Notes under the pieces: model-generated
What the model was told of the DNA's origin: nothing
Databases searched by the model: none
What the model saw: the letters and a program-made list of their open reading frames with translations, nothing else
Assembly: GCA_041649315.1 (NCBI GenBank)
Contig: JBAZNJ010000001.1
Span: 197,869 to 261,868, forward strand
Direction: 5' to 3'
Origin: Patescibacteria group bacterium
Lineage (GTDB): Bacteria; Patescibacteriota; Patescibacteriia; Patescibacteriales; UBA12465
Length of the DNA: 64,000 bases
Translations under genes and position numbers: made by a program
In this document: in pieces, positions 32,782-63,640 of the stretch
Numbering within the stretch: position 1 is the stretch's first letter
Layout of the letters: each line of letters starts with the position of its first letter

Positions 32782-32806
32782 ATACTAAAATGTAATAATA
32801 ATCTAT

Positions 32807-38800: not shown

Positions 38801-39763
38801 GGAGGTATTAAGGACTGACGGGGCAATTCCTTCAACCGGATTGCCGCTTCCGGTAAAAAGAACTTTACTGGCGCCATCCGCGTATTCGCCAAAATTTCTT
38901 CCAAAAATCGTAATAAAATTATCAACCGCGCCGTTCGGCGTTAAAAGGTCGCAAACACCCGAGCAATCATCGTCAGAAATACATGACTGATTAGGATTAT
39001 CAATGCAGAAACCGCCTAAAGGACTTATCTCCGTAATCACCGGCGGCCCATAGCAAAGACAAGTTTCTGGATTACAACTTAAATATTCCGCGCATTGATC
39101 ATTATCGGCTTCACAGGTTTCATTACTCAAATCCCCATCACAAGATGCTCCCAAACCGCCGCGCGGCCGGCAAGCGCAATTAGCTTCATCGCAATAATCG
39201 CTAGACGCGCAAATCTGATTTACGGCCTGGCAACCGGGATTCGGGCTGGAATCGCAGCTAGTCGGATTACCGATTCCGGCGCCGGAACAATCCGACCCGA
39301 CACAAGGACCCCATGATCCATTAGAATAAAGCATTGAACCGCCGCAGCCGCAAGGCGCCAAGCTCCCTTCTTCGTAACCGCCCCCAGTGCCGCTAACTGC
39401 GTTACCTAAACGCGTTAAAATAAAAGTAGCAATTCCCCAAGACGCCAAAATAATCACTAAGCCGATAACGCCGCTTTTTAAAATTTTCTTGGCTTTTTCT
39501 ACTTTTTCTTCTTCGCCGCCGGAAGTCATCCAAATAAAGCCGCCATAAATCACGAAACCGACCGCGATAATTCCTAAAAACCCTAAAGCAATATTAATAA
39601 TCCGACCGGCAATCGTCCGCGGATCACCAGCCGCCAAAGCACCGTCCAAACCGCTCTCTACCGCCTCCGTACCGAAGTCCTGGGCAAATACCAAACGCGC
39701 TAAAAGCAGCCCACCGGCAATGAGTAAGAAAAATAATAAATTTTTACTGATTTTTTTTCGCAC
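32807..39763 (-). CDS. giant Cys-rich surface protein (2318 aa) with an N-terminal TrbC/VirB2-like pilin module
   Basis: Signal peptide ...RLVFAQ, then two TM helices flanking TSGGEEEKVEKAKKILK. Several IPT/TIG-like units follow (PVITEISPLGG.., FSPLSGAPGQYVTIRGDGFG, LEPLSGPVASPVTLWGEYFG). It also has FN3-like units, five tandem CxxxCxGKCGGAxDGCGGxC repeats and a C-terminal jelly-roll-like domain ending in CRYTF. Confidence 0.85.
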   Translation of the reverse strand: MRKKISKNLLFFLLIAGGLLLARLVFAQDFGTEAVESGLDGALAAGDPRTIAGRIINIALGFLGIIAVGFVIYGGFIWMTSGGEEEKVEKAKKILKSGVIGLVIILASWGIATFILTRLGNAVSGTGGGYEEGSLAPCGCGGSMLYSNGSWGPCVGSDCSGAGIGNPTSCDSSPNPGCQAVNQICASSDYCDEANCACRPRGGLGASCDGDLSNETCEADNDQCAEYLSCNPETCLCYGPPVITEISPLGGFCIDNPNQSCISDDDCSGVCDLLTPNGAVDNFITIFGRNFGEYADGASKVLFTGSGNPVEGIAPSVLNTSCSDFWRDDQIIIAVPAGAISGPIQVVSQEGASDYTDDDFGPEIPNFRANNIVRPGLCYLDPNRGALSSEVNYQGVNLYSAAAYFGNYKTNVRAIESVFTNPEGLSGTSLTPNIKAGESGSFVTVNLSGQAEKSNYLRFVKESEAGDGPFIASFSPLSGAPGQYVTIRGDGFGGARGTSRVFFGATEATYDFPEMCLNSVWKDNQIVVKVPAGLEDGSQVIMVDLGDAVINTEKLNPNIFLADKNAPLAPSLCKLEPLSGPVASPVTLWGEYFGREDSEGLIKFNYDRNAVGMIELDGRADMIETEVPAGAISGPVSVVSNSLTGNALDFAVEECRVDADCGTQVCCPQNTYRKGRCVDSLNDCFVDIPTSVFEWKFSTGFGDLVENPYAYSCAGLSEYYGTCQTNDYCPNTPGLCSPYAGGQKAIADCDFSCISVSGCGGLGTNGCSYDSTVNRCLEKGADAICDLSQTFSYTLNSQEYEAEKVCQNISEEIGNRWTIESVTSCPDGWARGNGNTCIDPISVCSLCSEEFSCIEVNGSGCCASEEICPGDSICAETNKCLEPIAASCDCCCTIGESARDCCAGLQCEGTCGSDISLTDGQNNTNIGLGLCGGCASAGEDPGIRDATCNCSGHSGQYCEIDNDNFPNGFCGDCSSLSAAGCLEHAGVCCLDSRGTSDSADDICRGGSDNNGLVSADPSHPDFGYCAYYDCSATNANECAATNPLKIGPYKSLEICEKTCPQNDPCPGLTDFGDCRANPRCCFDSDRTTATDDDICRLGNQIAEGADAGWCAYYDCSASNPNQCASSTPVRGTENSFSSISACEQYCPNKPAGAGLICTAGDTSLCDPEVCNVQGFGCFSPEGNLGGSSADCGTCCCQPGEPITVEGVEYSDACAARNSKLSCEADKGNCSGDDRGLCCGCTNDLDCGSPENIGCGLDTCCQARPKIDLSSPKHLDNNVCRNAVLKVDFNKKMDTNSFNGNVLLLEERNYGEGVCPAGTFIATGESLAEIALDNSDSDSFSLELKQSRLVRLSSRLASLWLKLFGRFNDSALADMPDPNKLYCAVPGDVSSENNGESTSLLFVPKRLLSPAANYYLIVLGDTELNSRSGVLSMEGIGLNGSGYLNVSKEDYDGGNYSSNDYVEGENIFFNKRTYKNSQIIKFTTLSGQDPTSGICAIDEVLVSPSSYLFKTSENSLDENDSDPAAKTFDTEADRDKVFAARAYSANGQILRPVSGYFWDWEFDIANGEVASLEEVSSDRILVRAEPGITDGETMITATVNMERFLDEGNCNDNLNCVCEGEICSNNCCNFYTGGDKFNNFSNIYLFLCNNPWPPVAPDGTWEPWFDNCPAGLGASCADYNYKFYYCRDAGAAGTLDDLPAIIDQAVIRGISSNLICSSDQSPCVSAGEVCGADKNGDSVPDGICIWNVLKESYFFREALPAGSEIIEAIDREIGGTVSLAWRSEAAQVYSYKIYYSSGSGEMFFKELKASEVCSLVDGSYECRSLINNLENNIPYIFKISAVSESRTESGLSGELSVMPTDKVPPATPAAPSLSVVDSLLKFSWPANADKVSFYRLYRGVSVKAYGESFDSAGPNTSLSFPLNQFSVGNNYFSLSAFDEYDNESIKSDELSCELSLREGCEDFSASDCGPQLDCCSKDCSGKCGGAPDGCGGTCTADCPEFEKCVNQVCEACVPDCAGKCGGAVDGCGGYCDDACSSSGEACINQRCQQICTPDCAGKCGGAVDGCGGTCTTACPQGQECINEVCRNICTPDCAGKCGGAADGCGGTCMAACPGFEKCVSQVCQACVPSCVGKAPCADNGCGGTCAVPCNGDDPCLQISVDNFYEVYLNGTKVAITYPSSSREYIDVYSENGMVSSRCSNDMCWTDIRPLPVTLRTGNNVLAIKAINDGGVYGLAARLVDGCNTVISTNNPNNWVCTEVTPAMNWMNTSFSTNSYWRAAIETGKTGNGNRLYPAVNQLWATTASGAKSTADTIYCRYTF
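33305..33844 (-). repeat. five tandem ~37-39-aa Cys-rich repeats (about 111-117 bp each) in the 2318-aa gene
   Basis: CSKDCSGKCGGAPDGCGGTCTADCPEFEKCVNQVCEA / CVPDCAGKCGGAVDGCGGYCDDAC.. / CTPDCAGKCGGAVDGCGGTCTTAC.. / CTPDCAGKCGGAADGCGGTCMAAC.. / CVPSCVGKAPCADNGCGGTCAVPC. Confidence 0.85.
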
Positions 39764-39788
39764 AGATTAAATTTAGTATTTACAAAAA

Positions 39789-42494
39789 TTATTGGCAACT
39801 TCCATTCGTGCCAAGTATATCGGTCGGGACACCGAAACAACAAGAAGGATATTCGTCGGTCGCCGAGCAACCCGGACCGATACTTGGCTTATAACAATTC
39901 TGATAAATATCTTTAACGCCGGAGCCGACCTGGACTTTATAAGTCATGGACTCGGCAAAAGGTGAATGAAAGATATTAACAATACTTAAATCCGGCTCGC
40001 CATCCAAAGGTTCAACATCTAAATTATCTACTTTCATCCAATATCCGAGCGGGGACGGCGAAGCCGCGCTTAAATTAATCAATCTATGTTCAACCGTAGA
40101 AGTTCCGCTCTTTACCTTTAAGCCGCCGCTTTGCAAAGTGCTATTCATCATTAAAGTATTAAACTTAATTTTAACCGGCTCAACCAAAGGCAGGCCGCTT
40201 TGCCCGGCCGAAGGGCTTATTTCCGTGATCACCGGCGGGTCTAAAGCAATCTGATCGTTGATGTAAAAAGACCATTTATATTTATCCTTTTTCCCAGCGT
40301 TAACTATTGAATCATAATTATCATGATAAAAATCCAAAGGCCCGTCGGCATAGGCGCTCCGATCGCCGTCAAAAGAATTGATTGCCGCGTCCACGATCCC
40401 GTCCAAGGAGCTTAAATTTCCAGCCGGATAATTCTGGCCGGCGTCATCCTGGCAGGTCTTATAACCCAAAGAAGTGTCTCGGCAATTTATAAACGGCACT
40501 AAAGCCGAACAGTCGCTATCGCTTTCACAGGTCTTAAGATTGGCCGGCAGCATTTCCATAGCTAAATGGCTATTAGCCGGCAAACAATAAATTTCCTCGC
40601 CGCAACCGTTGACGCCGCATTTAACATCGGAAATAAACTCCAAGGTCTTATAATTATTGCTCACGACGAATTTCCCGCCCAAATAATCACCGACGCAAAC
40701 ATTGTTTTCGCATTTATAAGATCGACATTCCGAGGCCGCGCTGCAAGCCGCACCGGCCGGAAAAGCTTCAGTAGCGGCATTAACGACCCGGATATGGCCA
40801 GCCACTTCTCCGGCCGTGCCGGAAACGGTCGCCGGATTAATCGCTTCATTAAAATTAACCTGGATTACAGAATTCATCGGCCGATCTTTTTTATCCAACG
40901 GCTCATCGGTTTTTTCTAAATCCGTGCCGCCAGAAAACGACTTCAATCCTAAAACCGAAACAGCCGTTGTCGTTAATGAAATATTATTACCGTCCTCGCC
41001 AGCAACCCGCGCCGTTAAAATCACTTTATCTCCTTCTTTAAAAACTTCCAAATCTTCCCGGCCGCTTAATTTCGCCGTAATATTTTTTGCTAATTCATCA
41101 TTACTATAACTATCCGGCACTAAAATATTATTATTCTCTCCAGAAGCGGCAAAAGAATATATTTCCCCCCCGACCTCGAGGGTATCAGCTAAGCGTTCCG
41201 GGCTGATTTTTATATTCCATAGATATTCTGCCTTAACCGAATCTGATTTAAAGGTTAAATAATTATTAAAAACCGCCTGGCCGGAAACCAAATCCGCAAT
41301 ACCTAAAAGATTATTGGCACCGTCAAAAAGCTGGACTTTGTCATCGGCGCCGTCAGGCACGGAAACGATAAAATCAGAAACGCTTCCATGATAATCTAAA
41401 ATCACCGAAGCGCCACTCGGCGTCGTCGGAGTGGCCGGTGTAACCGAAATCACTTCGGCCGGCGCATAAACCGCCGGCTCACCCAGGACCGTTATCGCCG
41501 CGCTAGCCGGTGCGGCTGGAGTTATTTGCTGATAAATATCTTTAATATTATCCGGAATCGGAAATACTCCGGTCGGGACGACTAAAGGCGGGGTTAGATC
41601 TAATTTATCGCTAACTGTAAATTCCCATTGAGCGCCGGAGACATTGCAACCAGTGAACATTGAAGAATCGTCTGTTTTCTTAATATAATCGCTTAATTTA
41701 ACAGAATAAGCGGTTTCCCCGCTGGCCGAACCTAAAAAGCTCAAAGGGCTTAAAATAAAAGTTTTATCCTCGCCGGTAACCGTTACTAAAACATCGGTCA
41801 CATTCGCGTTCTCCTCCGGGCAAGAAGAAGCCGAACAAGAATCGCCTAAAGCGCTCTTATACAAACGGACCGCTAAAGGATTAAGGCGATTACAATCTTC
41901 TTTATCACAAACGCAAGGCGTTGCCTGGCTATTAATACAAAGGGTGTCGGTTTTTATTTTTTCTTTTAGGGTAACCATGATTGAAGTATTGCGCGGCACG
42001 TCCTTTTGGCCGTCGGCCGGATAAACACTATCAACCGCGCAGGCACCGATGGCCGCTGTGCCAGAGCCGGAGATACCGGCCCGATTTGAATCGGCCGGAC
42101 TGCCAGTAATTCCTAAAGCGTCGGATAAGCGAGAAAGTAAAAAAGTTGTTATTCCCCAAGAAGACAAAACTATAACCAGGCCAATAACCGCGTTTTTGAG
42201 AATATTTTTCGCTTTCGTTATTTTTTCTTCATCGCCGCCCGAAGTCGTCCAGATAAACCCGGCGTACATTATTATCACAACCGCGAGTACTCCTAAAAAG
42301 CTTAAGGCAATCTGGATAATCCGGCCGATAATCATCCGCGGGTCAGCCGAAGACAGGGTCCCGCCCAAGCCGCTTTCCACCGCTTCTACGCCAAAATCCT
42401 GAGCCGCGACTGGTAAAGAAAACAAAAAACCGCCCGCCGCAACTAAGGCCAGCCAAGCAAAAATAATCATAATCGATTTTACTTTTCTAGTCAT
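39789..42494 (-). CDS. large surface protein (901 aa from ATG 42494) with an N-terminal TrbC/VirB2-like pilin module and Big_5-type Ig domains
   Basis: MTRKVKSIMIIFAWLALVAAGGFLFSLPVAAQ signal, then a module 65/97 identical to that of the 2318-aa protein. SbsA/Big_5-like segments (VDSVYPADGQKDVPRNTSIMVTL, MNSVIQVNFNEAINPATVSG, ISPSAGQSGLPLVEPVKIKFN). The longer track ORF (to 42737) overlaps the divergent rel gene and is rejected. Confidence 0.8.
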   Translation of the reverse strand: MTRKVKSIMIIFAWLALVAAGGFLFSLPVAAQDFGVEAVESGLGGTLSSADPRMIIGRIIQIALSFLGVLAVVIIMYAGFIWTTSGGDEEKITKAKNILKNAVIGLVIVLSSWGITTFLLSRLSDALGITGSPADSNRAGISGSGTAAIGACAVDSVYPADGQKDVPRNTSIMVTLKEKIKTDTLCINSQATPCVCDKEDCNRLNPLAVRLYKSALGDSCSASSCPEENANVTDVLVTVTGEDKTFILSPLSFLGSASGETAYSVKLSDYIKKTDDSSMFTGCNVSGAQWEFTVSDKLDLTPPLVVPTGVFPIPDNIKDIYQQITPAAPASAAITVLGEPAVYAPAEVISVTPATPTTPSGASVILDYHGSVSDFIVSVPDGADDKVQLFDGANNLLGIADLVSGQAVFNNYLTFKSDSVKAEYLWNIKISPERLADTLEVGGEIYSFAASGENNNILVPDSYSNDELAKNITAKLSGREDLEVFKEGDKVILTARVAGEDGNNISLTTTAVSVLGLKSFSGGTDLEKTDEPLDKKDRPMNSVIQVNFNEAINPATVSGTAGEVAGHIRVVNAATEAFPAGAACSAASECRSYKCENNVCVGDYLGGKFVVSNNYKTLEFISDVKCGVNGCGEEIYCLPANSHLAMEMLPANLKTCESDSDCSALVPFINCRDTSLGYKTCQDDAGQNYPAGNLSSLDGIVDAAINSFDGDRSAYADGPLDFYHDNYDSIVNAGKKDKYKWSFYINDQIALDPPVITEISPSAGQSGLPLVEPVKIKFNTLMMNSTLQSGGLKVKSGTSTVEHRLINLSAASPSPLGYWMKVDNLDVEPLDGEPDLSIVNIFHSPFAESMTYKVQVGSGVKDIYQNCYKPSIGPGCSATDEYPSCCFGVPTDILGTNGSCQ

Positions 42495-42512
42495 TGGATT
42501 TCTAAGTAAAAA

Positions 42513-42561
42513 TTTAAAATTATGCTTGTCTATGCTATAATAATATAGCTTTATTATAACA
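42513..42561. promoter_or_regulatory. divergent extended -10 promoter candidates (rel on +, surface locus on -)
   Basis: Plus strand: TTTAAA (42513-18), 17 nt, then TGcTATAAT (42533-41). Minus strand: TGtTATAAT, which is the reverse complement of 42553-42561. Confidence 0.4.
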
Positions 42562-42587
42562 TAAAAAGAGAAAAATAAAAAAGGGTT

Positions 42588-44057
42588 ATGACGATTGACC
42601 GCGTAGTTAAAAAATTCTCTGATAACCACCCCGGCGAGGACGTCGCTGTTCTTTACCGGGCCTTTGAATTTGCTAACGCCGCCCATAAGGACCAAGCTCG
42701 AAAAAACGGCGATCCCTATATCCAACATCCGCTCCATACCGCCTATATTTTAGCGGAAATCAAGGCGGATTTAGCGACTATTGCGAGCGGGCTACTTCAT
42801 GACGTCCCGGAAGATACGCCGCATACTCTTGAAGAGATTGACGAACTTTTTGGGCCGGAGATTGCTTCTTTAGTCGGCGGTATTACTAAGCTTGGAAAAA
42901 TAAAATATCGTGGCATTGAACGCTACCGCGAAAATCTAAGAAGAATGTTCCTGGCCATGACTAATGACTTACGGGTAGTCTTTATAAAATTTTGTGATCG
43001 TTTGAATAATCTCCGAACGATAGAAAATCTGCCACCGGAAAAACAAAAAAGAATTGCTAAAGAAACCATGGAAATCTATGTGCCGATTGCCGGGCTCTTA
43101 GGAATCGCCCGGTTAAAGTGGCAAATGGAGGACATCTGTTTTAAAATCCTTTACCCCGATGAATTCCAGGCTCTAGAATATAAATACGAAGTGGAAAAAA
43201 AAGTCGAGCGCAATCGTTTTTTTCAAAAGGTTAAAAACATTATCGTCCCGAAATTAAAAGAAACCGGAATTGAACACTCAATTGAAATCCGCTTCAAGCA
43301 TCTTTATAGCATCCATCAAAAAATGCAGGAAAAGAATCGTAAATTCGATGAGATTTACGACGTTTTCGCCTTGCGCATCATCGTCCCGACGATTGATGAC
43401 TGTTATAAGACGCTGGGCATAATCCATACTTTATGGAAACCAAAGCCGCATCGTTTCAAGGATTATGTCGCTGTCCCTAAACCTAATGGCTATCGGTCCA
43501 TCCATACCACGATTATCGGCCCGGAGAACAAAGCCACAGAATTCCAGATCCGGACAAAGGAAATGCACGAAGAGAGCCTTTACGGTTTAGCGGCCCATTG
43601 GTATTACAAAAATAAAACTAAAACAACCAATTACGCGGCCCCGCATTGGGTTAAAGAAATAATTGAAATCCAAAAAGAAATCAGTAATACGGACGAATTG
43701 GTAAAAAAAATAAAATTAGATATTTTTCGAGATCGGATTTTTGTTTTCTCACCAAAGGGGGATGTTTTCGAGCTCCCGGAAGGCGCGACCCCGGTCGATT
43801 TTGCTTATGCTGTCCATACCAATATCGGCAACAAGGCTTCCGGCGCCCTGATCAATGATAAGCTCGGCCGACTTGACCAGGAGTTAAAAAACGGCGATTT
43901 CGTAAAAATCATTACGGAAAAAAACCGCGAATACCCGAATCGCGACTGGCTAAAATTCGTCCGTACCCGGAAAGCGCGCGAACGCATCAAGCAATATACT
44001 AAAAAATCCCGCCTGGAAACTATCAAGCGCTTCATCCCGGGAATGAATCGAGAATAA
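42588..44057 (+). CDS. bifunctional (p)ppGpp synthetase/hydrolase, short Rel/SpoT homologue (HD + synthetase + TGS, no ACT/RRM domain)
   Basis: HD motif LLHDVPEDT, synthetase core YRSIHTTI and a TGS segment IFVFSPKGDVFELPEGATPVDFAYAVH. 489 aa. Confidence 0.9.
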   Translation: MTIDRVVKKFSDNHPGEDVAVLYRAFEFANAAHKDQARKNGDPYIQHPLHTAYILAEIKADLATIASGLLHDVPEDTPHTLEEIDELFGPEIASLVGGITKLGKIKYRGIERYRENLRRMFLAMTNDLRVVFIKFCDRLNNLRTIENLPPEKQKRIAKETMEIYVPIAGLLGIARLKWQMEDICFKILYPDEFQALEYKYEVEKKVERNRFFQKVKNIIVPKLKETGIEHSIEIRFKHLYSIHQKMQEKNRKFDEIYDVFALRIIVPTIDDCYKTLGIIHTLWKPKPHRFKDYVAVPKPNGYRSIHTTIIGPENKATEFQIRTKEMHEESLYGLAAHWYYKNKTKTTNYAAPHWVKEIIEIQKEISNTDELVKKIKLDIFRDRIFVFSPKGDVFELPEGATPVDFAYAVHTNIGNKASGALINDKLGRLDQELKNGDFVKIITEKNREYPNRDWLKFVRTRKARERIKQYTKKSRLETIKRFIPGMNRE

Positions 44058-44375: not shown

Positions 44376-45744
44376 ATAACCCACCCTCCTTTCTATTAAT
44401 TATTTTCTTTTCTATTAACTTATCTTTCTTAGCTAAACGCTCCTTAATCTTTTTATAAACCACGGTCTCTTGTGCCCCGGAATCAATATCGCGCATTAAA
44501 ATAGTCCCGTCCATAATCTCTTTTTTCCCTAAAATCAAGGCAGTTTTTGCGCCTAAAGCCGTCGCTTCCTCTAATTGTGTCTTTAAACTATCCGCGGCGA
44601 ATGATTGGCGGACCTTAAAACCGGATTGATGTAAATCATTAAATAATTGCATTGACTTTATCTTCGCCTGATCACCAAGCTGAGCGATAAAAATAACTTC
44701 TTCTTCTTTTTTATCAAACAAAGATTGCTTATCTTTTATTCGCATCACTGTCCGTTCCAGGCCGATCGCCAAACCAACAGCCGGCGTTTCCGGGCCACCT
44801 AAATTTTCAACCAAAGAATCATAGCGTCCGCCCCCGGCCAGCGCCATCTTGCCTAAGACCGCGCCGTCTTCATTCAAAGGCCAGAATTCAAAAACCGTAT
44901 CATTATAATAATTCAAACCGCGAACCAAATAAGGATTAAAATTATAATTAACATCAAGCTCGTCTAAAAATTCCAAGGTCTTGGCAAAATGCTCGCGGCT
45001 TTCCGCCGACAAAAAATCAGCAATCTGCGGCGCTTCTTCCCGTTCCTTAACGCAAGTGTCCTCTTTGCAATCTAATAAGCTCAAGCAATATTTGCCTAAG
45101 TTCTTCTTGCAATTATTACACAATTTTGAACGCCGTCCTCTTTCCTTATAAAAAGCCAAAAGTTTCGCGCTATAATCTTTCCGGCAATCAAGATCTCCGA
45201 TGCTATTGATCTGAACCTGGATCTTTATCTGCAAATCCGCAAAAAAATTATAAACCGCCGCGATCAACAAGGCCTCGGATAGAGGTTTCTTTTCGCCGAT
45301 TATTTCTATATTAGCCTGCGTTGATTCACGATAACGACCGGTCTGCAATTTCTCATGGCGGAAAATCGACCCGAGAGAAAAAAGACGGACTAATGAGGCG
45401 TTTTCATTCAAATTATTTTCTAAATAAGCGCGGATTACGCCCTGGGTTATTTCCGGCCGCAAGATTACCCGTTCACTTTTTTCCCCTTCAACAAAATAAA
45501 ATTCCTTATCCGTATTCTTGCGCGTGGATTTTTTATACAAATCAAAACTTTCTAAAATCGGCGTCTTAATCGGAGAAAAATTATAGATCTTGGCAAAATT
45601 TAAAAGCTTATCAGACACCAATTCAAAATAACGCGCTTCCGGGCCAACAAAATCTTTCATGCCTAAAAGCCGCTTTGAAGTTTTATTATTTTTCTTTTCA
45701 ATTTTTTGCGCCGTTTCCGGAGCATTTTTTTTCGGTCTAGGCAT
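44362..45744 (-). CDS. hisS: histidine--tRNA ligase
   Basis: Class II motifs (LRPEITQGVIRAY; FRHEKLQTGRYRE; GGGRYD) and a C-terminal anticodon-binding domain. 460 aa with a short basic N-terminal extension. Confidence 0.93.
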   Translation of the reverse strand: MPRPKKNAPETAQKIEKKNNKTSKRLLGMKDFVGPEARYFELVSDKLLNFAKIYNFSPIKTPILESFDLYKKSTRKNTDKEFYFVEGEKSERVILRPEITQGVIRAYLENNLNENASLVRLFSLGSIFRHEKLQTGRYRESTQANIEIIGEKKPLSEALLIAAVYNFFADLQIKIQVQINSIGDLDCRKDYSAKLLAFYKERGRRSKLCNNCKKNLGKYCLSLLDCKEDTCVKEREEAPQIADFLSAESREHFAKTLEFLDELDVNYNFNPYLVRGLNYYNDTVFEFWPLNEDGAVLGKMALAGGGRYDSLVENLGGPETPAVGLAIGLERTVMRIKDKQSLFDKKEEEVIFIAQLGDQAKIKSMQLFNDLHQSGFKVRQSFAADSLKTQLEEATALGAKTALILGKKEIMDGTILMRDIDSGAQETVVYKKIKERLAKKDKLIEKKIINRKEGGLYGGL

Positions 45745-45751
45745 ATAAAAT

Positions 45752-46318
45752 TTAATTATATTGCGGCCAATAATCTTTATTAAAAACCATTACCTTATCT
45801 AAAGGCCAACCGCGGAATAAAATTTTTCCCGTGATAAAACTTTTATGGACCGGGCCGAAACTCCGCGAATCTTTTGAGGCATTGCGGTTATCTCCTAAAA
45901 CATAATACTCATCCGAGCCAATCGTAATTTTTTCTTCACTATTATTAAAAGTCGTCAAATCTTCCGGCAAATATTCTTCGTTTAAAACAAGCCCTGTCGG
46001 ATTTTCTTCATTAAAAATATTAATTTGGCCGTCTTTAATCTGGATACTCTCGCCCGGCAAGCCGATTACTCTTTTAATAAAATATTCCTGCGGATTGCGG
46101 GGATAACGGAAAACAATAACCTGGCCGCGTTCCGGCGGCGTAAAGCGATAGCTAAGCTCATCGATTATCAGATATTCATGGTCATGGAAATTCGGTTCCA
46201 TAGACGCACCTTTGACATAAAAAGGTTGAATTAAAAAATAACGCACCGGTAAAATAATCGCTAGAGAAATAGCGACCACTTTAGTTATTTCCCAAATAAA
46301 TATAAGAAATTTTCTCAT
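45752..46318 (-). CDS. lepB: signal peptidase I
   Basis: GASMEPNF (catalytic Ser), KRVIGLPGE (Lys box) and GDNRNASKDSR. The start is set at ATG 46318 (MRKFLIF); the track ORF starts at an upstream TTG. Confidence 0.9.
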   Translation of the reverse strand: MRKFLIFIWEITKVVAISLAIILPVRYFLIQPFYVKGASMEPNFHDHEYLIIDELSYRFTPPERGQVIVFRYPRNPQEYFIKRVIGLPGESIQIKDGQINIFNEENPTGLVLNEEYLPEDLTTFNNSEEKITIGSDEYYVLGDNRNASKDSRSFGPVHKSFITGKILFRGWPLDKVMVFNKDYWPQYN

Positions 46319-46458
46319 AAAAAATAAAATAATCTTTAAAGATTTGGCAGCCGGTCTTAATACGAAACCTGTTGCCAAATACTATTTTTATCCTAAGTTC
46401 CTTAAAAAACACGACAATCAGCTCTTAGTATATCAGAAAAATAAAAAAAAATCAAATC

Positions 46459-46580
46459 ACTTATTTTAGCTGATATTTAATAAATAAACATCGCATCCCC
46501 ATAACTGAAGAAGCGGTAATGGCGGCGGATAGCCTCCTGATAGGCGCGATTGATATATTCTTTGCCGGCTAAAGCGGAAA
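46459..46580 (-). pseudogene. displaced copy of the queA 3' end (last ~33 codons + stop + 18 nt), att-like direct repeat A
   Basis: 115/122 nt identical to 48199-48320. It translates [32 protein letters not shown] but has no upstream queA body. Confidence 0.85.
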
Positions 46581-48198
46581 TAAAAAAAGCGACAATTTTA
46601 GCCGCTTCTTATTTACAAATTCCTCCTGCGACAAACCCGCAGGATTAATTAATTAATATTTTTTGTATTTGCCACCCCGACGACAAATACTTACTGACCG
46701 CCACTATATAGACTCCGGCTTCTATTGGCTTCCAAGTAACCTCATTTTTTTCAAAAAAAGAGACGACTTTCCGGCCACAAATATCAAATATTTGTATTTG
46801 ACACTCATGACCATTATTTACAACTATAGTTAGCTCATCGGCGCCGGCGATACATGGATTCGGAAAAATTTTTATTGCCTCCTTTATTGCCTCCTTTAAT
46901 ATTTCATTTCTTCCAACACTTAGTAATGTGTCTTCTGTAACAGCCGAGGAATCAACAACCGGATCATTACCGGCGGAATCTATCTCTGCAACATTATACG
47001 GCGGAATTACTAATTTGAATAATGAATCGCCACTGATGAAAAAAGCCGTATTCCCAAAACTGGCAAGATTATCAACTTCGCCATTCCAAACTTTTTGAAA
47101 AAGTGGTTGGTAGGTTTCAGTTTCTTCATTCCTAAAAAAATTAGTCTGACCGGATTTTAAACAGGAATACATTAAACCTTCTTGCCCTCCTTTAAATAAT
47201 ATATTATCAGGAGAAGAAGAAAGAGAAAAAAGAGAAAAAATAGATGTATTATTAACTACAAATATAGTATCTAAATATTTTCCTTGCCCGCCTGGCCACA
47301 TTCCGTTAAACATCATAACCACTTCTTCATTGGCGATAATTTGTCTCCCCCCTCTTAACCCGAAAAAATCCTCACTATAAATGGTTTTTCCGTTACAATA
47401 TTCCCGCACTTTCCAGGTATTATAGTAATCAGAAAAAACTATATAAAGCTTTCCGCATCGCGCAATACAATCAGAAAAAAAAGCATAATAATGTTCTCCT
47501 CGCGGACTTACCGTCCCGGTAGTGTCAAATTCTTTTTCCCAAACATCCCCATTTAAACAAAAAATTAAGGATGTATCTGGAAGCAAATCGCCATATCGCC
47601 AAGCGATTAAATACCATTTATTATCTAACATAGCCGCACTTCGAGCGCTTTTAATAATAGTATCTAAAATAAAGGGGGTGTTTTGTTTTTTTCTAAATAT
47701 TTCCCCCTTAGCGCTAATCGCTAAAATTTCTTTTATTTGCTCGGCGACAACAATATTTGTTATTGCTTCTTCAGAAATTTTTTCTACAGAAATTTCATTT
47801 CCATCAGCAATCAAAATTGAACCATCTCCCATAGCAACAATAACAGTGCTATCGTCAATCGCACTCATAGCCATACTGGCAGCAGGAAGATTTGAAATAC
47901 TATTAATCCGAACCGAATCTGAAAAATCAGAACTCGTATGAGCTAATACGCTACCAACTGCTAAGCTAAAACTTAATAATAATACTATTTTCATCATTTT
48001 TAATTTTTAATTAATACTTATATTTAATTACTCATTAAGCCCCTGAAAATAAAGTGATCTGAAGAAGATGTCAGAAACTTAAAGAATAATTAAATATGAG
48101 TAAATAATCATTATTTTTGTTAAAGGGCTAATAATTCTTATCAAACTACCACAAACAAAAAAATAAGTCAAACATAAGAATAAAACGCTTTAATATTG
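46581..48198 (-). mobile_element. 1.6-kb low-GC insertion (island remnant) between the two queA 3'-end repeats; no recombinase present
   Basis: Bounded by the 122-bp direct repeats and carrying a single ORF. AT-rich: for example, 47221-47280 has 10 G+C of 60 by hand count. Confidence 0.5.
46645..47997 (-). CDS. secreted protein with a T9SS-type (Por) C-terminal sorting domain (450 aa)
   Basis: Signal peptide MMKIVLLLSFSLAVGSVLA. The C-terminus IKIFPNPCIAGADELTIVVNN..CQIQIFDICGRKVVSF...IEAGVYIVAVS....QIQKILIN matches the Por_Secre_tail pattern (PNP..., iyD..Gr.V, GvY.v.v, K..k). Confidence 0.7.
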   Translation of the reverse strand: MMKIVLLLSFSLAVGSVLAHTSSDFSDSVRINSISNLPAASMAMSAIDDSTVIVAMGDGSILIADGNEISVEKISEEAITNIVVAEQIKEILAISAKGEIFRKKQNTPFILDTIIKSARSAAMLDNKWYLIAWRYGDLLPDTSLIFCLNGDVWEKEFDTTGTVSPRGEHYYAFFSDCIARCGKLYIVFSDYYNTWKVREYCNGKTIYSEDFFGLRGGRQIIANEEVVMMFNGMWPGGQGKYLDTIFVVNNTSIFSLFSLSSSPDNILFKGGQEGLMYSCLKSGQTNFFRNEETETYQPLFQKVWNGEVDNLASFGNTAFFISGDSLFKLVIPPYNVAEIDSAGNDPVVDSSAVTEDTLLSVGRNEILKEAIKEAIKIFPNPCIAGADELTIVVNNGHECQIQIFDICGRKVVSFFEKNEVTWKPIEAGVYIVAVSKYLSSGWQIQKILIN

Positions 48199-48320
48199 AC
48201 TTATTTTAGCTGATATTTAATAAATAAACATTGCGTCCCCATAGCTGAAGAAGCGGTAATGGCGGCGGATAGCCTCCTGATAGGCGCGATTAATATGCTC
48301 CTTGCCGGCTAAAGCGGAAA
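48199..48320 (-). repeat. att-like direct repeat B (functional 3' end of queA)
   Basis: See 46459-46580. The offset between copies is 1740 bp. Confidence 0.85.
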
Positions 48321-49338
48321 CCAACATTAAAAGCGTTGATTTCGGCAGATGGAAATTAGTTATTAGCGCGTCTATGATTTTAAATTCATAGCTGGGATAA
48401 ATAAATATATCGGTCCATAAAGAGCGAGATTTAAGACCGTCTTGTCCATCGTGCCAATCAAGCGACTCCAAAACCCGGCAACTAGTCGTCCCGACCGGGA
48501 TAATTCGTCCACCCGATTTTTTCGTCGCTAAGATTGCTTTAATCGTCGCCGCGCTTATTTCCGCAAATTCGCTATGCATCTTATGCTCATTGATTTTTTC
48601 CGTTTTTACCGGCGCGAAAGTCCCGAGCCCGACATGTAAAGTCACATATACTATTTTTACGCCTTTAGCTTTTATTTTCTTCAACAGGCCTTTAGTAAAA
48701 TGCAATCCGGCCGTCGGAGCGGCCGCCGAACCGACTTTATGTTCGTCGGCAAAAACGGTTTGATAATTTTCCTTATCGCCGACAACTTTTTTATTGCGCT
48801 TAATATAGGGCGGCAGAGGAACAATACCAATCTTGTTAATCGTTTTCCAAAAAGCCGCCCCGCCTTGATTAAACTTTACCTGCCAAGTGCCGTCCTGATT
48901 ATTTTTTAAAATTTCTGCTTTTAATCCAGCTCGTTTCCGTTCGACTGTTTTTTTTCCGGCCGCAATCACTTTGTTCGTGTTTGATGTTAGCAAAAATTCC
49001 ACAACCTGCCTCTCTTTAACCCGTCCGCCGATTAAACACTCCCAAACATTGGCGGACGCTTTACTATCGCTTAATTTACGATGCAAAAAAACTTCCACCG
49101 CCCCGCCGGTCTCCGCTTTCCGTCCGATTAGCCGCGCCGGAAAAACTTTAGAGTTATTCAAAACTAGAAGATCGCCGGGCTTAAAATAATCGACTAAATC
49201 ATAAAAATGTTTATGCTCCATCGCCCCGGTTTTTTTATTCAATAACAAAAGCCGCGAATGGTCTCGCGGTTTAACCGGTTTTTGGGCGATGAGCTCGGGA
49301 GGTAATTTATAATCAAAATCGGATACAGTATAGGACAT
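48217..49338 (-). CDS. queA: S-adenosylmethionine:tRNA ribosyltransferase-isomerase
   Basis: MSYTVSDFDYKLPPELIAQKP... matches the QueA N-terminus, with the C-terminal ...SYGDAMFIY. The start is set at ATG 49338, 5 nt after the upstream stop. Confidence 0.93.
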   Translation of the reverse strand: MSYTVSDFDYKLPPELIAQKPVKPRDHSRLLLLNKKTGAMEHKHFYDLVDYFKPGDLLVLNNSKVFPARLIGRKAETGGAVEVFLHRKLSDSKASANVWECLIGGRVKERQVVEFLLTSNTNKVIAAGKKTVERKRAGLKAEILKNNQDGTWQVKFNQGGAAFWKTINKIGIVPLPPYIKRNKKVVGDKENYQTVFADEHKVGSAAAPTAGLHFTKGLLKKIKAKGVKIVYVTLHVGLGTFAPVKTEKINEHKMHSEFAEISAATIKAILATKKSGGRIIPVGTTSCRVLESLDWHDGQDGLKSRSLWTDIFIYPSYEFKIIDALITNFHLPKSTLLMLVSALAGKEHINRAYQEAIRRHYRFFSYGDAMFIY

Positions 49339-49342
49339 AGAT

Positions 49343-49936
49343 TTAAACATTTTTTCTTTTAACCGTAATTTTTCGCCTAACAATAAGCAGTCCAATAAAA
49401 GCGCTATTAGAAACGACCAGGGCGGCGGGGTAAAGCCAGGTCGTCGGATTATAAGCCTCTAGGGCAAATAGACTTAAGATAATTCCAATCGTAGTTATAA
49501 TAAAAGTCGGCAAAGTTTCTTCATGCGGCTTATAATAAGCTTTACGAAAAGTTGGAACATAGGCCAGGGTATCAATAACAATTGCTAAAATAACGGCGGA
49601 TAAAGGATTACTAGTTAATAGCCATAAAACCAAGGCTAAAATTGCGCCCCCAAAAGACAATTTATCAATCAAGGTAATATTTCTTTCCCCTCTTTTAATT
49701 GCCAAAGCAAATATAATCAGACAAACTAAAGCCGTTGTTCCGTTAGCCCAAGACCCGGCGCCCGCGCCTTTAACCACTTGCGCCGCGTAAGTTATTCCTC
49801 CTAATAAGCCCCAAACTAACCAAGAAAAGATATGGGGCTTGGCTCTTCCTTTAAAAATATCCCGAAAATATGGGATATAAGCTAGGACAGCAACAATGGA
49901 AGCGACGGCCCCTAAGATTATTTTATAATTGTTCAT
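49343..49936 (-). CDS. polytopic membrane protein with an internal two-fold repeat (PQ-loop/SWEET-like layout)
   Basis: AYIPYFRDIFKGRAKPH and AYVPTFRKAYYKPHEET occur at equivalent positions of two 3-TM halves. 197 aa. Confidence 0.45.
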   Translation of the reverse strand: MNNYKIILGAVASIVAVLAYIPYFRDIFKGRAKPHIFSWLVWGLLGGITYAAQVVKGAGAGSWANGTTALVCLIIFALAIKRGERNITLIDKLSFGGAILALVLWLLTSNPLSAVILAIVIDTLAYVPTFRKAYYKPHEETLPTFIITTIGIILSLFALEAYNPTTWLYPAALVVSNSAFIGLLIVRRKITVKRKNV

Positions 49937-49947
49937 CTGGAATAAAA

Positions 49948-58113: not shown

Positions 58114-59014
58114 TAACGCCGTCGGAATTATTCATGGCCGCCCGTAAAGCCGACGGCATTATTTTTAATTGAAATTTTTTTAAAATTTTTTCTAGGCGGT
58201 CACCAAAGGGATTCGACTTGGCTATTGGCGCACCCGGCGTAGACACTATTTTCGAAAAACAACTTTCAGCCATTACCGACCCAGGCGCATCAACTATTAC
58301 ATCATCCGAAAAATGCCGTCTATCCGTCGCTGTTTCCCGATTCCCCGGTGCCTTGTCGCCCAAGCCGTTCGCCGCCTGAAAATTTTCATAAACCTTATCC
58401 TTATTATACAACAAAACTAAATCTTTTAGCCAATAATCAAAATAGGGATCGCCGCCAGGAAGTTTTAAATCATCAAGATTCAGATAATCCGCGGTTATAT
58501 AAAAGCTCAAACAGATTTTATCCCGCTTCTGTCCGGCTCGCGGCCGGCTATTTAATAATTTTGCCAGGCCGGCGCAATAAAAACGGCTTAACCATAAACG
58601 GCGCGGCGCGGTAATGATAAAAAAATCAATATCGCTTCCATCGCGCAAATTATGGGCGCCTAAAGAATTTGCTACGGCAATGACTTTTACAAAAGGGGCC
58701 AGGGAAAACAAACGGACAAAACGAGCCGCCTTTTTGATTTTTCGCCGCGCGTAATTATAACGCTCCTGCCTGATGGTAACTATTTCTTCTCGGCCGGCTA
58801 AAAAATAAAAGCCGTTTTCGGACCCAATCCGGCCGCTAAAACCAGCGGCACCATCAGCTAAAACTTCCATGATTTCCACTAATGCGAATTTCTTACCTAA
58901 ATACTGATAAATTTCAAAAGCGGTCAGAGGATAATTAAACAAATCAAAGAAAGCAATCGTTTTAAGGATCACCTGGGTTAAGCTGTCTTGATGAATGTTA
59001 TCTTTAATTATCAT
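58010..59014 (-). CDS. hypothetical protein with a nucleotidyltransferase-fold motif
   Basis: GSDIDFFIIT (G-S-x-D-x-D) motif. 334 aa, with a 4-nt overlap with the upstream gene. Confidence 0.45.
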   Translation of the reverse strand: MIIKDNIHQDSLTQVILKTIAFFDLFNYPLTAFEIYQYLGKKFALVEIMEVLADGAAGFSGRIGSENGFYFLAGREEIVTIRQERYNYARRKIKKAARFVRLFSLAPFVKVIAVANSLGAHNLRDGSDIDFFIITAPRRLWLSRFYCAGLAKLLNSRPRAGQKRDKICLSFYITADYLNLDDLKLPGGDPYFDYWLKDLVLLYNKDKVYENFQAANGLGDKAPGNRETATDRRHFSDDVIVDAPGSVMAESCFSKIVSTPGAPIAKSNPFGDRLEKILKKFQLKIMPSALRAAMNNSDGVIVNDCVLKFYLRDRRREFKEKYGHKINEIMPARD

Positions 59015-60363
59015 AACTTTTTCACAATCCCCTTATCTGCATTTACTTCAACCAAATCACCATCTTTTAAAACTTTTGTAGCTATTCTAGTGCCAATAAT
59101 ACATGGTTTATTCATCTCTCTGGCTACTATAGCGGCATGGCAAGTAATACCGCCTTCATCGGTAATAAAAGCAATCGCTTTTTGCATTAGAGGTAAAAAT
59201 TCTGGTCTAGTCATTGAGGTGACTAAAATGTCTCCTTTATTTATACTAGCAAATTTTGAATCAAAAACAACTCTCACTTTACCTATGATATTTTTCCCGC
59301 CGTTCCCTACCATGCCTTTTATTTCCTTAATTTTGCCCTTGTCTCCATAAAATGTTTTTTCCACGCCAAGCCATAACTTCGAGCTGGCTTCTATAAAACC
59401 ATCTTCAGCCATTATTCCGTATCTTGCATTATTTTTTGCATATCTTTTCGCGCTCTCTAATATCTCAGTATCGCCCCCATCTAAAATTTTTATAATTTCA
59501 TCCATTGCCAGCCACTTTAATTCATTAAAAGACCACCCTTTTTGAACGCATAACTCATTAAGCCACGCTTCCATTAAATCAACCACAATTAAAAAAAGTT
59601 TTTTCTTGTCGTCTCTAAAAGTAATCGCCTTTGAGCTTGCCTCGACTAAAAGACTAAATTTTTTATCTATTTTTTGTTTTTTACGTTTACGATTTACAGA
59701 TTCTTCACGTCGCGCAAAATTTAAAAGCCACTCTTTGGTTATATTAAATTTGCCTTTGTAAGAATTTTGAAACCATCCGTATTTTTCTATAAATTTAAGG
59801 GAAATTTTATCCCAATCCCCATTGTATAGTTTTTCTAACTTTAATAATTCCTCATGCGCCTTGCTTATAAAAGATTTTTCTTTAGTAAATATATTGCTCC
59901 TAATACTTTCTAGCTCTTTTGAGTTATTTTTTTCTTTGTTTTTTAAAAATTCGTCTAGCGCGTAGTCAAAACCGAATAAAATTCCCGCTGAATCGGACAG
60001 TATTTTTTGAGCAGGAACCCACCATTTTTTAAAATCCTGATGACTTTTATTTTTTCTTGTTTCAAGACATAAATTTATTACGTTTTTCATCGCCCGATGC
60101 ACTCTATCAAAATCTTTTATAAAATTATCATTGCCAGCCAATAATTCATTTATTATTCTCTTTCCAGTCTTCAAAAATGGCTCTCGCGGAACATATCCTT
60201 CTAACTGAGCCTCGTGGAAATAATTTAAAAAATACACCCACCTGGTAAAATATTTTTCATTAGTTGGGCGGGCGACTTTTTGATAAACAGATGTAAATAA
60301 AGGATAGGCTTCATATTGCCATCTATAACTTTCCCCCCAAATTTTGAGATTAAATTCTTTCAT
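59011..60363 (-). CDS. protein with a C-terminal PEP-utilising-enzyme mobile (swivelling phosphohistidine) domain and an unassigned N-terminal domain
   Basis: GDILVTSMTRPEFLPLMQKAIAFITDEGGITCHAAIVAREMNKPCIIGT matches the PpsA/PPDK phosphohistidine domain. The first ~330 aa have no recognisable motif. Confidence 0.7.
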   Translation of the reverse strand: MKEFNLKIWGESYRWQYEAYPLFTSVYQKVARPTNEKYFTRWVYFLNYFHEAQLEGYVPREPFLKTGKRIINELLAGNDNFIKDFDRVHRAMKNVINLCLETRKNKSHQDFKKWWVPAQKILSDSAGILFGFDYALDEFLKNKEKNNSKELESIRSNIFTKEKSFISKAHEELLKLEKLYNGDWDKISLKFIEKYGWFQNSYKGKFNITKEWLLNFARREESVNRKRKKQKIDKKFSLLVEASSKAITFRDDKKKLFLIVVDLMEAWLNELCVQKGWSFNELKWLAMDEIIKILDGGDTEILESAKRYAKNNARYGIMAEDGFIEASSKLWLGVEKTFYGDKGKIKEIKGMVGNGGKNIIGKVRVVFDSKFASINKGDILVTSMTRPEFLPLMQKAIAFITDEGGITCHAAIVAREMNKPCIIGTRIATKVLKDGDLVEVNADKGIVKKL

Positions 60364-60465
60364 AAAAAATGTTGTCTGCTGGAGAGAGTAAGCGCCCTGG
60401 TCACAACCATCACAAAAATTTTATGCGCCTTAATTTTAAGACAAAATTCAGGTACTAGGCTTATA

Positions 60466-61182
60466 CTATTTAAGCGGTCTTTTAATTATTAGATCAACCT
60501 CCGGATTATCTAACTTTAAATTTTCAATTACTTTTTTAGCGACAGGTTCAACCTCCATATACTTATTCAAATCTACTGGGTATTTTTCTTTATATATTTC
60601 TGTCTGCATTCCCCCAGGAAACACTCCGTAAATTTTTATGTTGGAATCTTTCAACTCTTGGCGAATTGATTCAGTTAATCCTTTAATGGCAAACTTGGAT
60701 GCTGAATAGGCTGAAATCCCTGGCTTACCATTAAGCCCGGCGGTTGAATTAATATTTATAATCAAGCCCTTCTCTTGTTTTTTCATATATAACAAGGCGG
60801 TTTGGCAACCATAAAAATATCCAAAAAAATTAACATCAAATAAGTGGTGTAATTTTTTAATATCAACTTCTTCAACTAAACTCGGCGCTATTTGAATCCC
60901 GGCGTTATTTATCCAAATATCAATCGTGCCATATTTTTCAAACACATAATTACTAAGCTTATCCATATCTTCCGCCGAAGTTACATCGGCTAAAAAGTAA
61001 TCAGATGATAATTCTTTCGCGACAAGCTCTAAACTATTTTTATCATGACTACTAATAATAACTTTTGCTCCTTCGACTATAAAAGCACCGGCAAGAGCTT
61101 CGCCAAATCCATGGCTACCGCCAGTGATTATAATAATTTTACCATTTAAATTCATATATATTTTTACTATGCTCCTCCTCAA
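60466..61182 (-). CDS. short-chain dehydrogenase/reductase (SDR)
   Basis: TGGSHGFG cofactor motif, NNAG and catalytic YSASKFA. 238 aa. Confidence 0.9.
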   Translation of the reverse strand: MRRSIVKIYMNLNGKIIIITGGSHGFGEALAGAFIVEGAKVIISSHDKNSLELVAKELSSDYFLADVTSAEDMDKLSNYVFEKYGTIDIWINNAGIQIAPSLVEEVDIKKLHHLFDVNFFGYFYGCQTALLYMKKQEKGLIININSTAGLNGKPGISAYSASKFAIKGLTESIRQELKDSNIKIYGVFPGGMQTEIYKEKYPVDLNKYMEVEPVAKKVIENLKLDNPEVDLIIKRPLK

Positions 61183-62288: not shown

Positions 62289-62305
62289 AACTCAGATATA
62301 AAATT

Positions 62306-63478
62306 TTACACTAAAGCTGATAAAAATTTACTAATATTCATTACTCTAATTTTATCGACCATAAAATCAACCTCATCTAAAACTAACTGAAAGGCTAAAA
62401 GAGATTTGTTTTGCTCCGCTAAATATTTTAAATTTTTAGAAACCTCCCGACTATTACTTTTTACTTCAATCGCCAACCAAGGCTTTTTATCGACCGCAAT
62501 TATAAAATCCACCTCCCGGCCCTCTAAGTCGCGCCAAAAAAATAACTCCGCTTGATCGCCTTTTACGTCATGCAAAAAATGAGTAAATTTTAATAAATGA
62601 GACGCCACTAAATTCTCTAGGCGTTTTCCTTGTTCGTCAACTTGCGACCAATCCCAAAGATATAATTTTGCCGCCTTTCTTAAAGATTTCACTGTAGAGA
62701 AAGCAAAGGGATAAATTCGAAAACTATAATAAAAATTTTCTAAAATATTAACCCACAAAGATACAGTCTTATGATTAACTTCTAAATCTAAACGCAAATT
62801 ATTGACGGACAACAAAGAACCAACTTTTTCCGGTAAAATATCAACTAATAATTGCATCCCCGATAGATTACGGATAATTTCTACATCCCTAATATCTTCT
62901 TTAACTAAAAGATCTTTCCTGGCGTTATGCCAACGTTTTAAATCGTTAATATTCTTTTTAAAAAGCACTTCCGGAAAACCGCCAAAAGTCATTAAATCGT
63001 TAAAATCCTTTTCAGTTCTCTTGTCGGGAGCCGTAAAAGATAAGGTTTTCCCGATTTTTCCGGAAAATATCCGGCCGGATAGCTCGGCTAAAGAAAAGGG
63101 GTGGAGCCGATAATAATGATACCGGCCAAAAATAGAATCACCGCCGCGACGATATAAATCTAAACGGGCGCTACCGGTCACTAAAATTTTAAAATCATCT
63201 TTATACTTATCGAATACTCCTTTAATATAATTTTTCCAACGCCGATATTTATGTAGTTCATCAAAAATTAACAAATCGGCCGCGGCGGGTAAATTATTTT
63301 TTTCAATCATCTTCCGATCATCATAAACATCCCAATTTAAATAACTAGGATTTTTAAAATAATTTTGTCCAATTATTTTTGCTAAAGTGGTCTTGCCGAC
63401 CTGTCTCGGCCCGCCGATAAAAACCATCTTATCCTTTAGATCGCTCTTTATAAATTTTGCTAAATATCTCTTTTCCAT
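62306..63478 (-). CDS. AAA-type ATPase with a DUF4143-like C-terminal domain
   Basis: Walker A GPRQVGKTT, Walker B LLIFDELHK. The C-terminal half is typical of the COG1373-type ATPase family. Confidence 0.8.
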   Translation of the reverse strand: MEKRYLAKFIKSDLKDKMVFIGGPRQVGKTTLAKIIGQNYFKNPSYLNWDVYDDRKMIEKNNLPAAADLLIFDELHKYRRWKNYIKGVFDKYKDDFKILVTGSARLDLYRRGGDSIFGRYHYYRLHPFSLAELSGRIFSGKIGKTLSFTAPDKRTEKDFNDLMTFGGFPEVLFKKNINDLKRWHNARKDLLVKEDIRDVEIIRNLSGMQLLVDILPEKVGSLLSVNNLRLDLEVNHKTVSLWVNILENFYYSFRIYPFAFSTVKSLRKAAKLYLWDWSQVDEQGKRLENLVASHLLKFTHFLHDVKGDQAELFFWRDLEGREVDFIIAVDKKPWLAIEVKSNSREVSKNLKYLAEQNKSLLAFQLVLDEVDFMVDKIRVMNISKFLSALV

Positions 63479-63640
63479 AATCCCTAAACTAAAAAATTAA
63501 TGTCCACCTAAATATTATACCAAACTACAAAATTTAGGCAAATATTTTATACTTTGGTGTAAAATTTATGATATACCGATTTTATTATTCAATATTAGCG
63601 AAAAAATATCTGCCCAAAATCTTGCTATTTTCAAAAAATC

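Follow-up and report, generated by a model that had tools for sequence, protein, structure and literature searches.

The closest described counterparts of the locus reported here are integrated DNA elements and the cargo proteins of type IX secretion systems (T9SS). Among the former, the cis-mobilizable elements (CIMEs) of Streptococcus keep their att sites and lack an integrase. In the T9SS pathway, secretion runs through SprA, cargo is carried by the PorV shuttle, and the PorU sortase acts ahead of attachment to anionic lipopolysaccharide (A-LPS) (PMC12398890, PMC10202324). Motifs A, B, D, and E of the sorting domain are conserved, as is a key lysine (PMC10202324), and both the system and proteins bearing its C-terminal domain (CTD) are described as confined to the superphylum Fibrobacteres–Chlorobi–Bacteroidetes (FCB) (PMC12398890, PMC10202324). 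Here we describe a gene encoding such a tail in 64,000 nucleotides of DNA (hereafter, the window; positions 197,869 to 261,868 of contig JBAZNJ010000001.1, assembly GCA_041649315.1) from an organism that carries the NCBI name ‘Patescibacteria group bacterium’. Patescibacteria are regarded as having no outer membrane. The gene, an open reading frame (ORF) of 450 codons, lies between queA and lepB and is flanked by two copies of the queA 3′ end; the locus is, we believe, probably a strain-specific, single-gene accessory cassette in a Patescibacteria genome.

The insert is bounded by a 122-nt direct repeat, the copies of which (c1, 48199-48320, and c2, 46459-46580) are 94% identical and spaced 1740 nt apart. 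The repeat consists of the last 104 nt of queA and 18 nt past its stop codon. Read in gene orientation, the queA body is followed by c1, then by 201 nt of AT-rich DNA and the ORF; two stem-loops and c2 come next, ahead of the lepB upstream region, lepB, and hisS. The 1740-bp unit is made up of the 201-nt upstream region, the ORF, the double terminator, and one 122-nt repeat copy. A degenerate DNA pattern for the repeat core recovered a JGI contig of a sister lineage (Ga0172382_10001041) in which queA runs straight into lepB, and an exact look-up of the LepB protein returned three more contigs, for a total of four assemblies (JGI 3300015214, 3300037067, and 3300035208, and ENA ERZ27247346). The empty junction is identical in 4/4 of these assemblies, and relative to them the window has exactly 1740 additional bases at the queA end. 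The features of the locus are as follows.

44480..46491 (−): near-identical tract of about 2 kb shared with the sister lineage (lepB upstream region, lepB, hisS), starting within the last 33 nt of c2; from mismatches and a sliding identity profile
46459..46580 (−): repeat copy c2, a second, detached copy of the queA 3′ end, with the cassette terminator on one side and the lepB upstream region on the other; 8/122 mismatches to the sister lineage (L083)
46581..46644 (−): two tandem stem-loops 3′ of the stop codon, the second followed by a U-run, forming the intrinsic terminator of the cassette; from folding and a terminator scan
46645..47997 (−): ORF of the orphan secreted protein (NCBI MFA4999958.1), in a 90%-identity cluster with one member
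46648..46869 (−): T9SS type A sorting domain (Por_Secre_tail), aa 377-450; from TIGR04183, PF18962, and NF038113
46870..47940 (−): passenger domain, aa 20-376, beta-rich, with no homologue detectable by HMMER or in Pfam, NCBIfam, PHROGs, or PDB
47941..47997 (−): Sec-type signal peptide, aa 1-19 (MMKIVLLLSFSLAVGSVLA, followed by H); read off the translation by eye, not with a predictor
47998..48198 (−): AT-rich upstream region U, 201 nt, not in the sister lineage; from sequence comparison
48199..48320 (−): repeat copy c1, the functional queA 3′ end, sister-lineage-like; 3/122 mismatches to the sister lineage (L083)
48217..49338 (−): queA (S-adenosylmethionine:tRNA ribosyltransferase-isomerase), the target gene, kept intact; PF02547

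In several respects the arrangement resembles integrated islands and CIMEs: the site of insertion is a conserved housekeeping gene's 3′ end, the gene is kept intact, gene-end direct repeats flank the insert, relatives have an empty site, and the insert has no recombinase of its own. No recombinase domain is found in its single ORF (Pfam, NCBIfam), and there is no integrase in the 64-kb window, essentially all ORFs of which were taken in by our Pfam scans, or in the flank contigs of an independent Logan assembly of the reads (SRR8542065). Unlike those elements, this one spans just 1.74 kb with a single cargo gene, its 122-nt repeat would be sufficient for RecA alone, and no second copy or other insertion site is known. 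Other signs of mobility are likewise lacking, in that the window holds no further copy and no other repeat-flanked cassette, and phage records, viral contigs, and protein collections yielded no relatives.

Comparison with the sister lineage reveals a mosaic of identity. The queA body shares 83% nucleotide identity with it, with differences at 30% of third positions in codons for identical amino acids. Against this background c1 is unusually close (3/122 mismatches, 2/32 third positions, P=0.001), whereas c2 shows ordinary between-lineage divergence (8/122 mismatches, 5/31 third positions, P=0.06). Beyond c2 the two lineages are nearly indistinguishable over about 2 kb, with 0/567 mismatches in lepB and 4/1383 in hisS, and identity returns to 83-98% beyond about 44480. 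The exception within this tract is a variable patch of ~70 nt (46324-46393, about 50-75% identity, in surroundings that are 100% identical) upstream of the lepB start at 46318; a hairpin is possible in both alleles, with weak fold z-scores (−2.0 and −1.2), and the patch could be a swapped terminator or leader element. In the sibling sample of the same study series (ENA ERZ27247346), the sister-type locus is present only as a short contig (k141_1217360, 1854 bp) that spans from ~40 nt before the queA-end repeat to inside hisS, roughly the tract of identity between the lineages, which hints that both lineages co-occur in that sample and collapse in assembly.

Seven transitions separate the two repeat copies. 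In the queA frame six of these are synonymous, where one-third would be expected if transitions fell at random (P=0.007). Because these differences are almost all synonymous, the copies appear to have diverged inside two functional queA genes, and it follows that one of them would have been imported with the cassette. A 47-nt block (15 codons; 48211-48257 in c1, 46471-46517 in c2) is identical in c1, c2, and the sister lineage; possible causes are gene conversion acting on the two copies and a recombination core under constraint. The queA gene itself was uninformative as a route to close relatives in the Genome Taxonomy Database (GTDB): the closest genes in species representatives are ~53% identical and belong to Parcubacteria, Komeilibacteria, and, for the most part, Bacillota, and an exact look-up of the genome's own queA product returned no record.

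The ORF has an ATG start and coordinates exactly as first noted, and a frame of this length in DNA of 35% GC could not have arisen by chance. At its N-terminus, a basic n-region, a hydrophobic core, and a V-L-A cleavage motif (MMKIVLLLSFSLAVGSVLA before HTSS) can be read by eye, of the signal-peptidase-I type and with no lipobox, as Sec-exported T9SS cargo would have. These coordinates, the repeat geometry, and our reading of the sequence bear out the description, made in the first-pass annotation, of a queA insertion with a single 450-aa ORF and a signal peptide. The double stem-loop after the stop codon folds at −24.6 kcal/mol (z=−4.68; 0/200 shuffles were as stable), and a terminator scan matches the same place; a signal scan of the 201-nt upstream region found no significant promoter-like signal.

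The claim that the protein ends in a Por secretion tail was made from its motifs, and profile hidden Markov models now agree with it. NCBIfam TIGR04183 matches aa 377-436 with 29.7 bits (curated cutoff 23, E=4.6e-7), NF038113 aligns through its CTD segment with aa 362-449 of the 450, and PF18962, which falls just below its own threshold, is nevertheless present in the precomputed Pfam annotation of the protein collection. The domain reaches the last residue of the protein. Within it can be read FPNP, FDICGRKV (FDxxGRKV), AGVYIV (AGVYxV), and, five residues from the end, K446 in QIQKILIN, in agreement with what we take to be the family consensus. By the NCBIfam model, then, with Pfam a near miss, we assign the protein to the T9SS type A sorting-domain sequence family. 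This assignment is not new, since the public record already bears the name ‘T9SS type A sorting domain-containing protein [Patescibacteria group bacterium]’. Directly N-terminal of the sorting domain, KEAIKEAIK is encoded by a 12-nt unit duplicated in tandem (AAGGAGGCAATA, twice, at 46869-46899, aa 368-376), which also yields two AAGGAGG strings resembling Shine–Dalgarno (SD) sequences within the coding sequence.

The protein has three parts, namely a signal peptide for Sec, a passenger, and, at the very C-terminal end, ~75 aa that fit the model of the sorting-domain family. In this architecture it equals ordinary T9SS type A cargo, housed in a cell of the wrong type. It departs from such cargo in its Patescibacterium host, in its orphan passenger, in its sub-threshold Pfam score, and in its surroundings. 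No T9SS gene (PorK/L/M/N, SprA/Sov, PorV, PorU) was found among the ORFs of the window (64 kb), nor in the Logan flank contigs (~13 kb), the ~300 kb rest of the contig and the bin being unread, and no second sorting domain occurs in the same DNA. The suspected absence of T9SS components is therefore borne out for the part that was scanned. Secretion through SprA, shuttling by PorV, and cleavage by PorU with A-LPS attachment would not be possible in this host. With a non-FCB host and no machinery in the scanned part, the protein fails as functional T9SS cargo.

The host is identified as a member of the Candidate Phyla Radiation (CPR) by its NCBI organism name and by gene content. The window, part of a 376,996-bp MEGAHIT k141 contig (ENA ERZ27247363), encodes housekeeping functions (FtsEX, DivIC, NrdD/G/R, FtsZ/A, SecDF, ClpP, RuvB, a UvrD-like protein, HisRS, and RelA/SpoT) together with content typical of CPR (giant T4SS_pilin-domain proteins, a VirD4-like ATPase, and a prepilin peptidase), all by Pfam. 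Against this genome the ORF is AT-rich, as first described: its GC content is 35.5% compared with 41.5% for the window, its third-position GC (GC3) of 0.268 is the lowest among 42 genes, and its tetranucleotide distance falls in the top 2.4% of windows. Its composition is atypical but not unique in the window. A second low-GC patch at 59000-63500 (GC 0.33-0.34, GC3 0.28-0.32) has the largest tetranucleotide distance in the window and may be another acquired region; it carries genes for a PEP-utilizer-domain protein (59011..60363), an SDR (60466..61182), and an AAA_14/DUF4143 ATPase (62306..63478).

The lack of an SD sequence, which the first-pass annotation had listed alongside the AT-richness, is true of the ORF and says nothing distinctive about it. 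An SD match of at least 5 nt within 20 nt before the start is present in 0/42 window genes, which have A/T-rich upstream regions instead, and the lineage appears to initiate translation without SD pairing. Because this is the norm for all 42 genes, the absence of an SD sequence is not a foreign mark, and we ruled it out as a donor signature. The Bacteroidetes −7 promoter motif TAnnTTTG was no more useful in that role, occurring once in the upstream region, which is chance level, and 56 times in the window against 69 expected.

Extensive searches identified no relatives. A full HMMER scan of 1.84e9 representative proteins with the passenger (aa 20-375) returned nothing at E≤0.001 but the protein itself, and a word-index search of 5.8e9 clusters returned only the self-match for the full protein, at E≤0.001 and at E≤10, and only the self-match for the CTD alone. 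The passenger matches nothing in Pfam, NCBIfam, or PHROGs, and its PDB sequence matches (spike, NHL repeats) are chance only. There was no blastn match in 50,697 phage records, and IMG/VR contained neither a relative nor the queA-core pattern. The taxonomy of best hits, proposed as a check on the donor, gave no read-out because homologues are lacking and matches are limited to the protein itself; the passenger is too divergent or too poorly sampled for tracing. Our literature search for T9SS domains in Patescibacteria or CPR found nothing relevant. An AlphaFold2 (AF2) single-sequence model of the full-length protein has a pLDDT of 35.6, too low for use, and this untrustworthy model is the sole basis on which the passenger could be called a propeller-like binding domain.

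The architecture of the locus would be produced by single-crossover (Campbell-type) integration of a circular DNA carrying a segment with queA-end homology. We propose that the cassette was linked to a sister-type queA before it arrived in this genome, because c1 (~100 nt) and the lepB-hisS region (~2 kb) are sister-like and the queA body is not; such a prior link implies that the proximate donor was a related Patescibacterium and not an FCB bacterium. Recombination through flanking or att-like homology would have carried the cassette from one related Patescibacterium to another, and, since the element has no recombinase, we have to assume that the work was done either by RecA of the host or by an integrase supplied in trans. 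Two histories can be envisaged. In one, a sister-type strain would have supplied the entire filled locus through recombination within c1 and close to the hisS end, with c2 left from an earlier integration. In the other, a single crossover would have inserted a circle bearing a sister-type queA end (c1), with displacement of the native end (c2), and the ~2 kb of lepB-hisS would have come later in a separate import that stopped at the heterology. Either way, the locus recalls the spread of accessory genes among related strains by homologous recombination of the flanks, as follows natural transformation, where donor-like tracts likewise lie on both sides of a heterologous insert in a divergent background. 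It differs in the left arm, which measures no more than ~100 nt and is the same stretch as the repeat, and one of the sister-like tracts may be a separate event; DNA uptake would have to be presumed here, and the window does encode a prepilin peptidase.

Several observations weigh against reading the locus as an imported cassette with a T9SS-type tail. The filled state has been seen in one sample only, and a free 1740-bp circle carrying a queA end would produce a Logan unitig identical to the one observed. Copy c2 stands as far from the sister lineage as would be expected of a copy native to this genome (5/31 third positions); either copy may have arrived with the cassette, and both histories fit. 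The sister lineage could also have lost the cassette through recombination between the repeats, which would reverse the polarity. For the domain, the PF18962 score of 24.8 bits (E=2.7e-5) is a near miss of the gathering score of 27, and the AF2 single-sequence model of the CTD alone, which had no alignment partners, shows 5-6 strands, where the family's Ig-like beta-sandwich has seven, at a pLDDT of 43.4 and is not trustworthy. An assembly artefact, in which a 1.7-kb piece of another organism or a free small circle was threaded in through the queA-end repeat, would account for the single sample, for the 1707-bp Logan contig that carries the gene and ends exactly inside both repeat copies, and for the sibling sample having just a short contig that starts ~40 nt before the repeat. 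We nevertheless hold it to be quite unlikely. The repeat contains exact stretches of 47 nt and 33 nt, which are the expected break points of a k=31 graph, so the Logan break is no sign of heterogeneity; the source contig was built at k=141, which exceeds the 122-nt repeat, and the seven copy-specific single-nucleotide polymorphisms (SNPs) of c1 and c2 are consistently arranged. Moreover, the Logan contig independently reproduces both junctions, that of the c1 repeat end with the upstream region and that of the terminator with c2, including the private SNPs of c2, which means that the piece is joined to CPR queA under any topology. The contig chimerism that the first-pass annotation had suspected is disfavored on the same grounds: with both junctions in CPR queA sequence, fusion to DNA of an unrelated organism is improbable. 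It is also unlikely that the gene is ancestral to the clade and was lost in the sister lineage by recombination between the repeat copies, with no recent acquisition. Direct repeats of 122 nt are good deletion substrates, and what is directly observed is a presence/absence polymorphism only, yet this scenario would still need an origin for the repeat itself. The copies differ at synonymous sites like alleles of different lineages, relatives in other genomes were not found, the composition is atypical, and the cassette has sister-like DNA on either side, a sign of recent exchange.

The origin of the tail raises two further alternatives. Acquisition from an FCB-group donor had been suggested from the outset, and its two parts fare differently, since the empty site in four sister-lineage contigs supports lateral acquisition and the queA-end copies flanking the insert speak against a direct FCB donor. 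Direct transfer from a Bacteroidota-like member of the FCB group, with the tail as inert cargo, would fit a sorting-domain family reported only from that superphylum (PMC12398890), and it would fit the low GC3 and the tetranucleotide distance of the ORF. We find it distinctly unlikely all the same, because both ends of the insert are the clade's own queA 3′ end and the copy joined to the cassette is sister-like (P=0.001), the passenger has no homologue, FCB or other, among 1.84e9 representatives, the upstream TAnnTTTG is at chance level, and the lack of an SD sequence is the norm of the genome. For the tail itself, an FCB source further back in time is plausible, given a family described as FCB-restricted (PMC12398890), and its ultimate source would probably have been an FCB-type gene. 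Alternatively, the C-terminal match might be a generic beta-sandwich likeness unrelated to T9SS sorting domains, as the sub-threshold PF18962 score, the failed fold prediction, and the lack of a pairwise match to solved CTD structures in PDB sequence searches would allow. This we consider very unlikely, given a TIGR04183 score over its curated cutoff, a second model whose CTD segment runs to the protein end, the location at the very C-terminal end of a protein that also has a signal peptide, and FPNP, FDxxGRKV, AGVYxV, and a lysine five residues from the end, all of which fit the presumed family motifs.

On the reading that we prefer, an accessory cassette received from a related Patescibacterium, the putative protein would be exported by Sec and cleaved by signal peptidase I, and its C-terminal domain would descend from the T9SS type A sorting-domain family. 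The tail would be unable to direct secretion or A-LPS attachment here, because the host presumably has no outer membrane, SprA/PorV shuttle, or PorU sortase. Most likely the domain is kept as an uncleaved immunoglobulin (Ig)-like beta-sandwich on a released or surface-associated putative accessory protein, or it is a functionless relic. We argue that the gene is at least tolerated, because it has an intact 450-codon frame, a dedicated terminator, and a history of passage between lineages. A far-fetched variant would place the Patescibacterium on an FCB-group host. There the tail would let the protein attach to the PorV/attachment complex of the host or to its A-LPS surface layer, as an effector by which a symbiont imitates the host's T9SS cargo, and related symbionts would pass the gene among themselves in a minimal cassette aimed at queA.

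The presence of a sorting domain inside a Patescibacteria chromosome suggests that this domain can escape its secretion system and persist without it, in a cassette with an intact frame, its own terminator, and signs of passage between two species-level CPR lineages. The locus also offers a clean, datable case of gene flow by recombination between CPR lineages of ~88% identity, a process that to our knowledge is little documented, and it provides a defined filled/empty site pair that is traceable in the source metagenomes. What is new here is the 1740-bp insert, the 122-nt queA-end repeat, the empty sister site, the orphan passenger, and the sister-type flanks. As a single orphan gene, the cassette is an evolutionary stray rather than a new system, and it opens no long-standing question.

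Two other regions of the window merit description. A second indel relative to the sister lineage, 606 bp at 49340-49945, separates ruvB from queA, which abut in the sister lineage; it contains an ORF (49343..49936, −) for a 197-aa multi-pass membrane protein (MFA4999960.1) with no Pfam family, and we saw no flanking repeat. Elsewhere in the window, three consecutive giant genes (28903-42737) encode proteins of 1292, 2318, and 982 aa and are typical CPR surface machinery. Two of the three proteins combine an N-terminal T4SS_pilin domain with TIG or Big_5 Ig-like domains, the gene for the 2318-aa protein contains tandem 114-nt repeats at 33398-33853, and Pfam gives no match for the 1292-aa protein.

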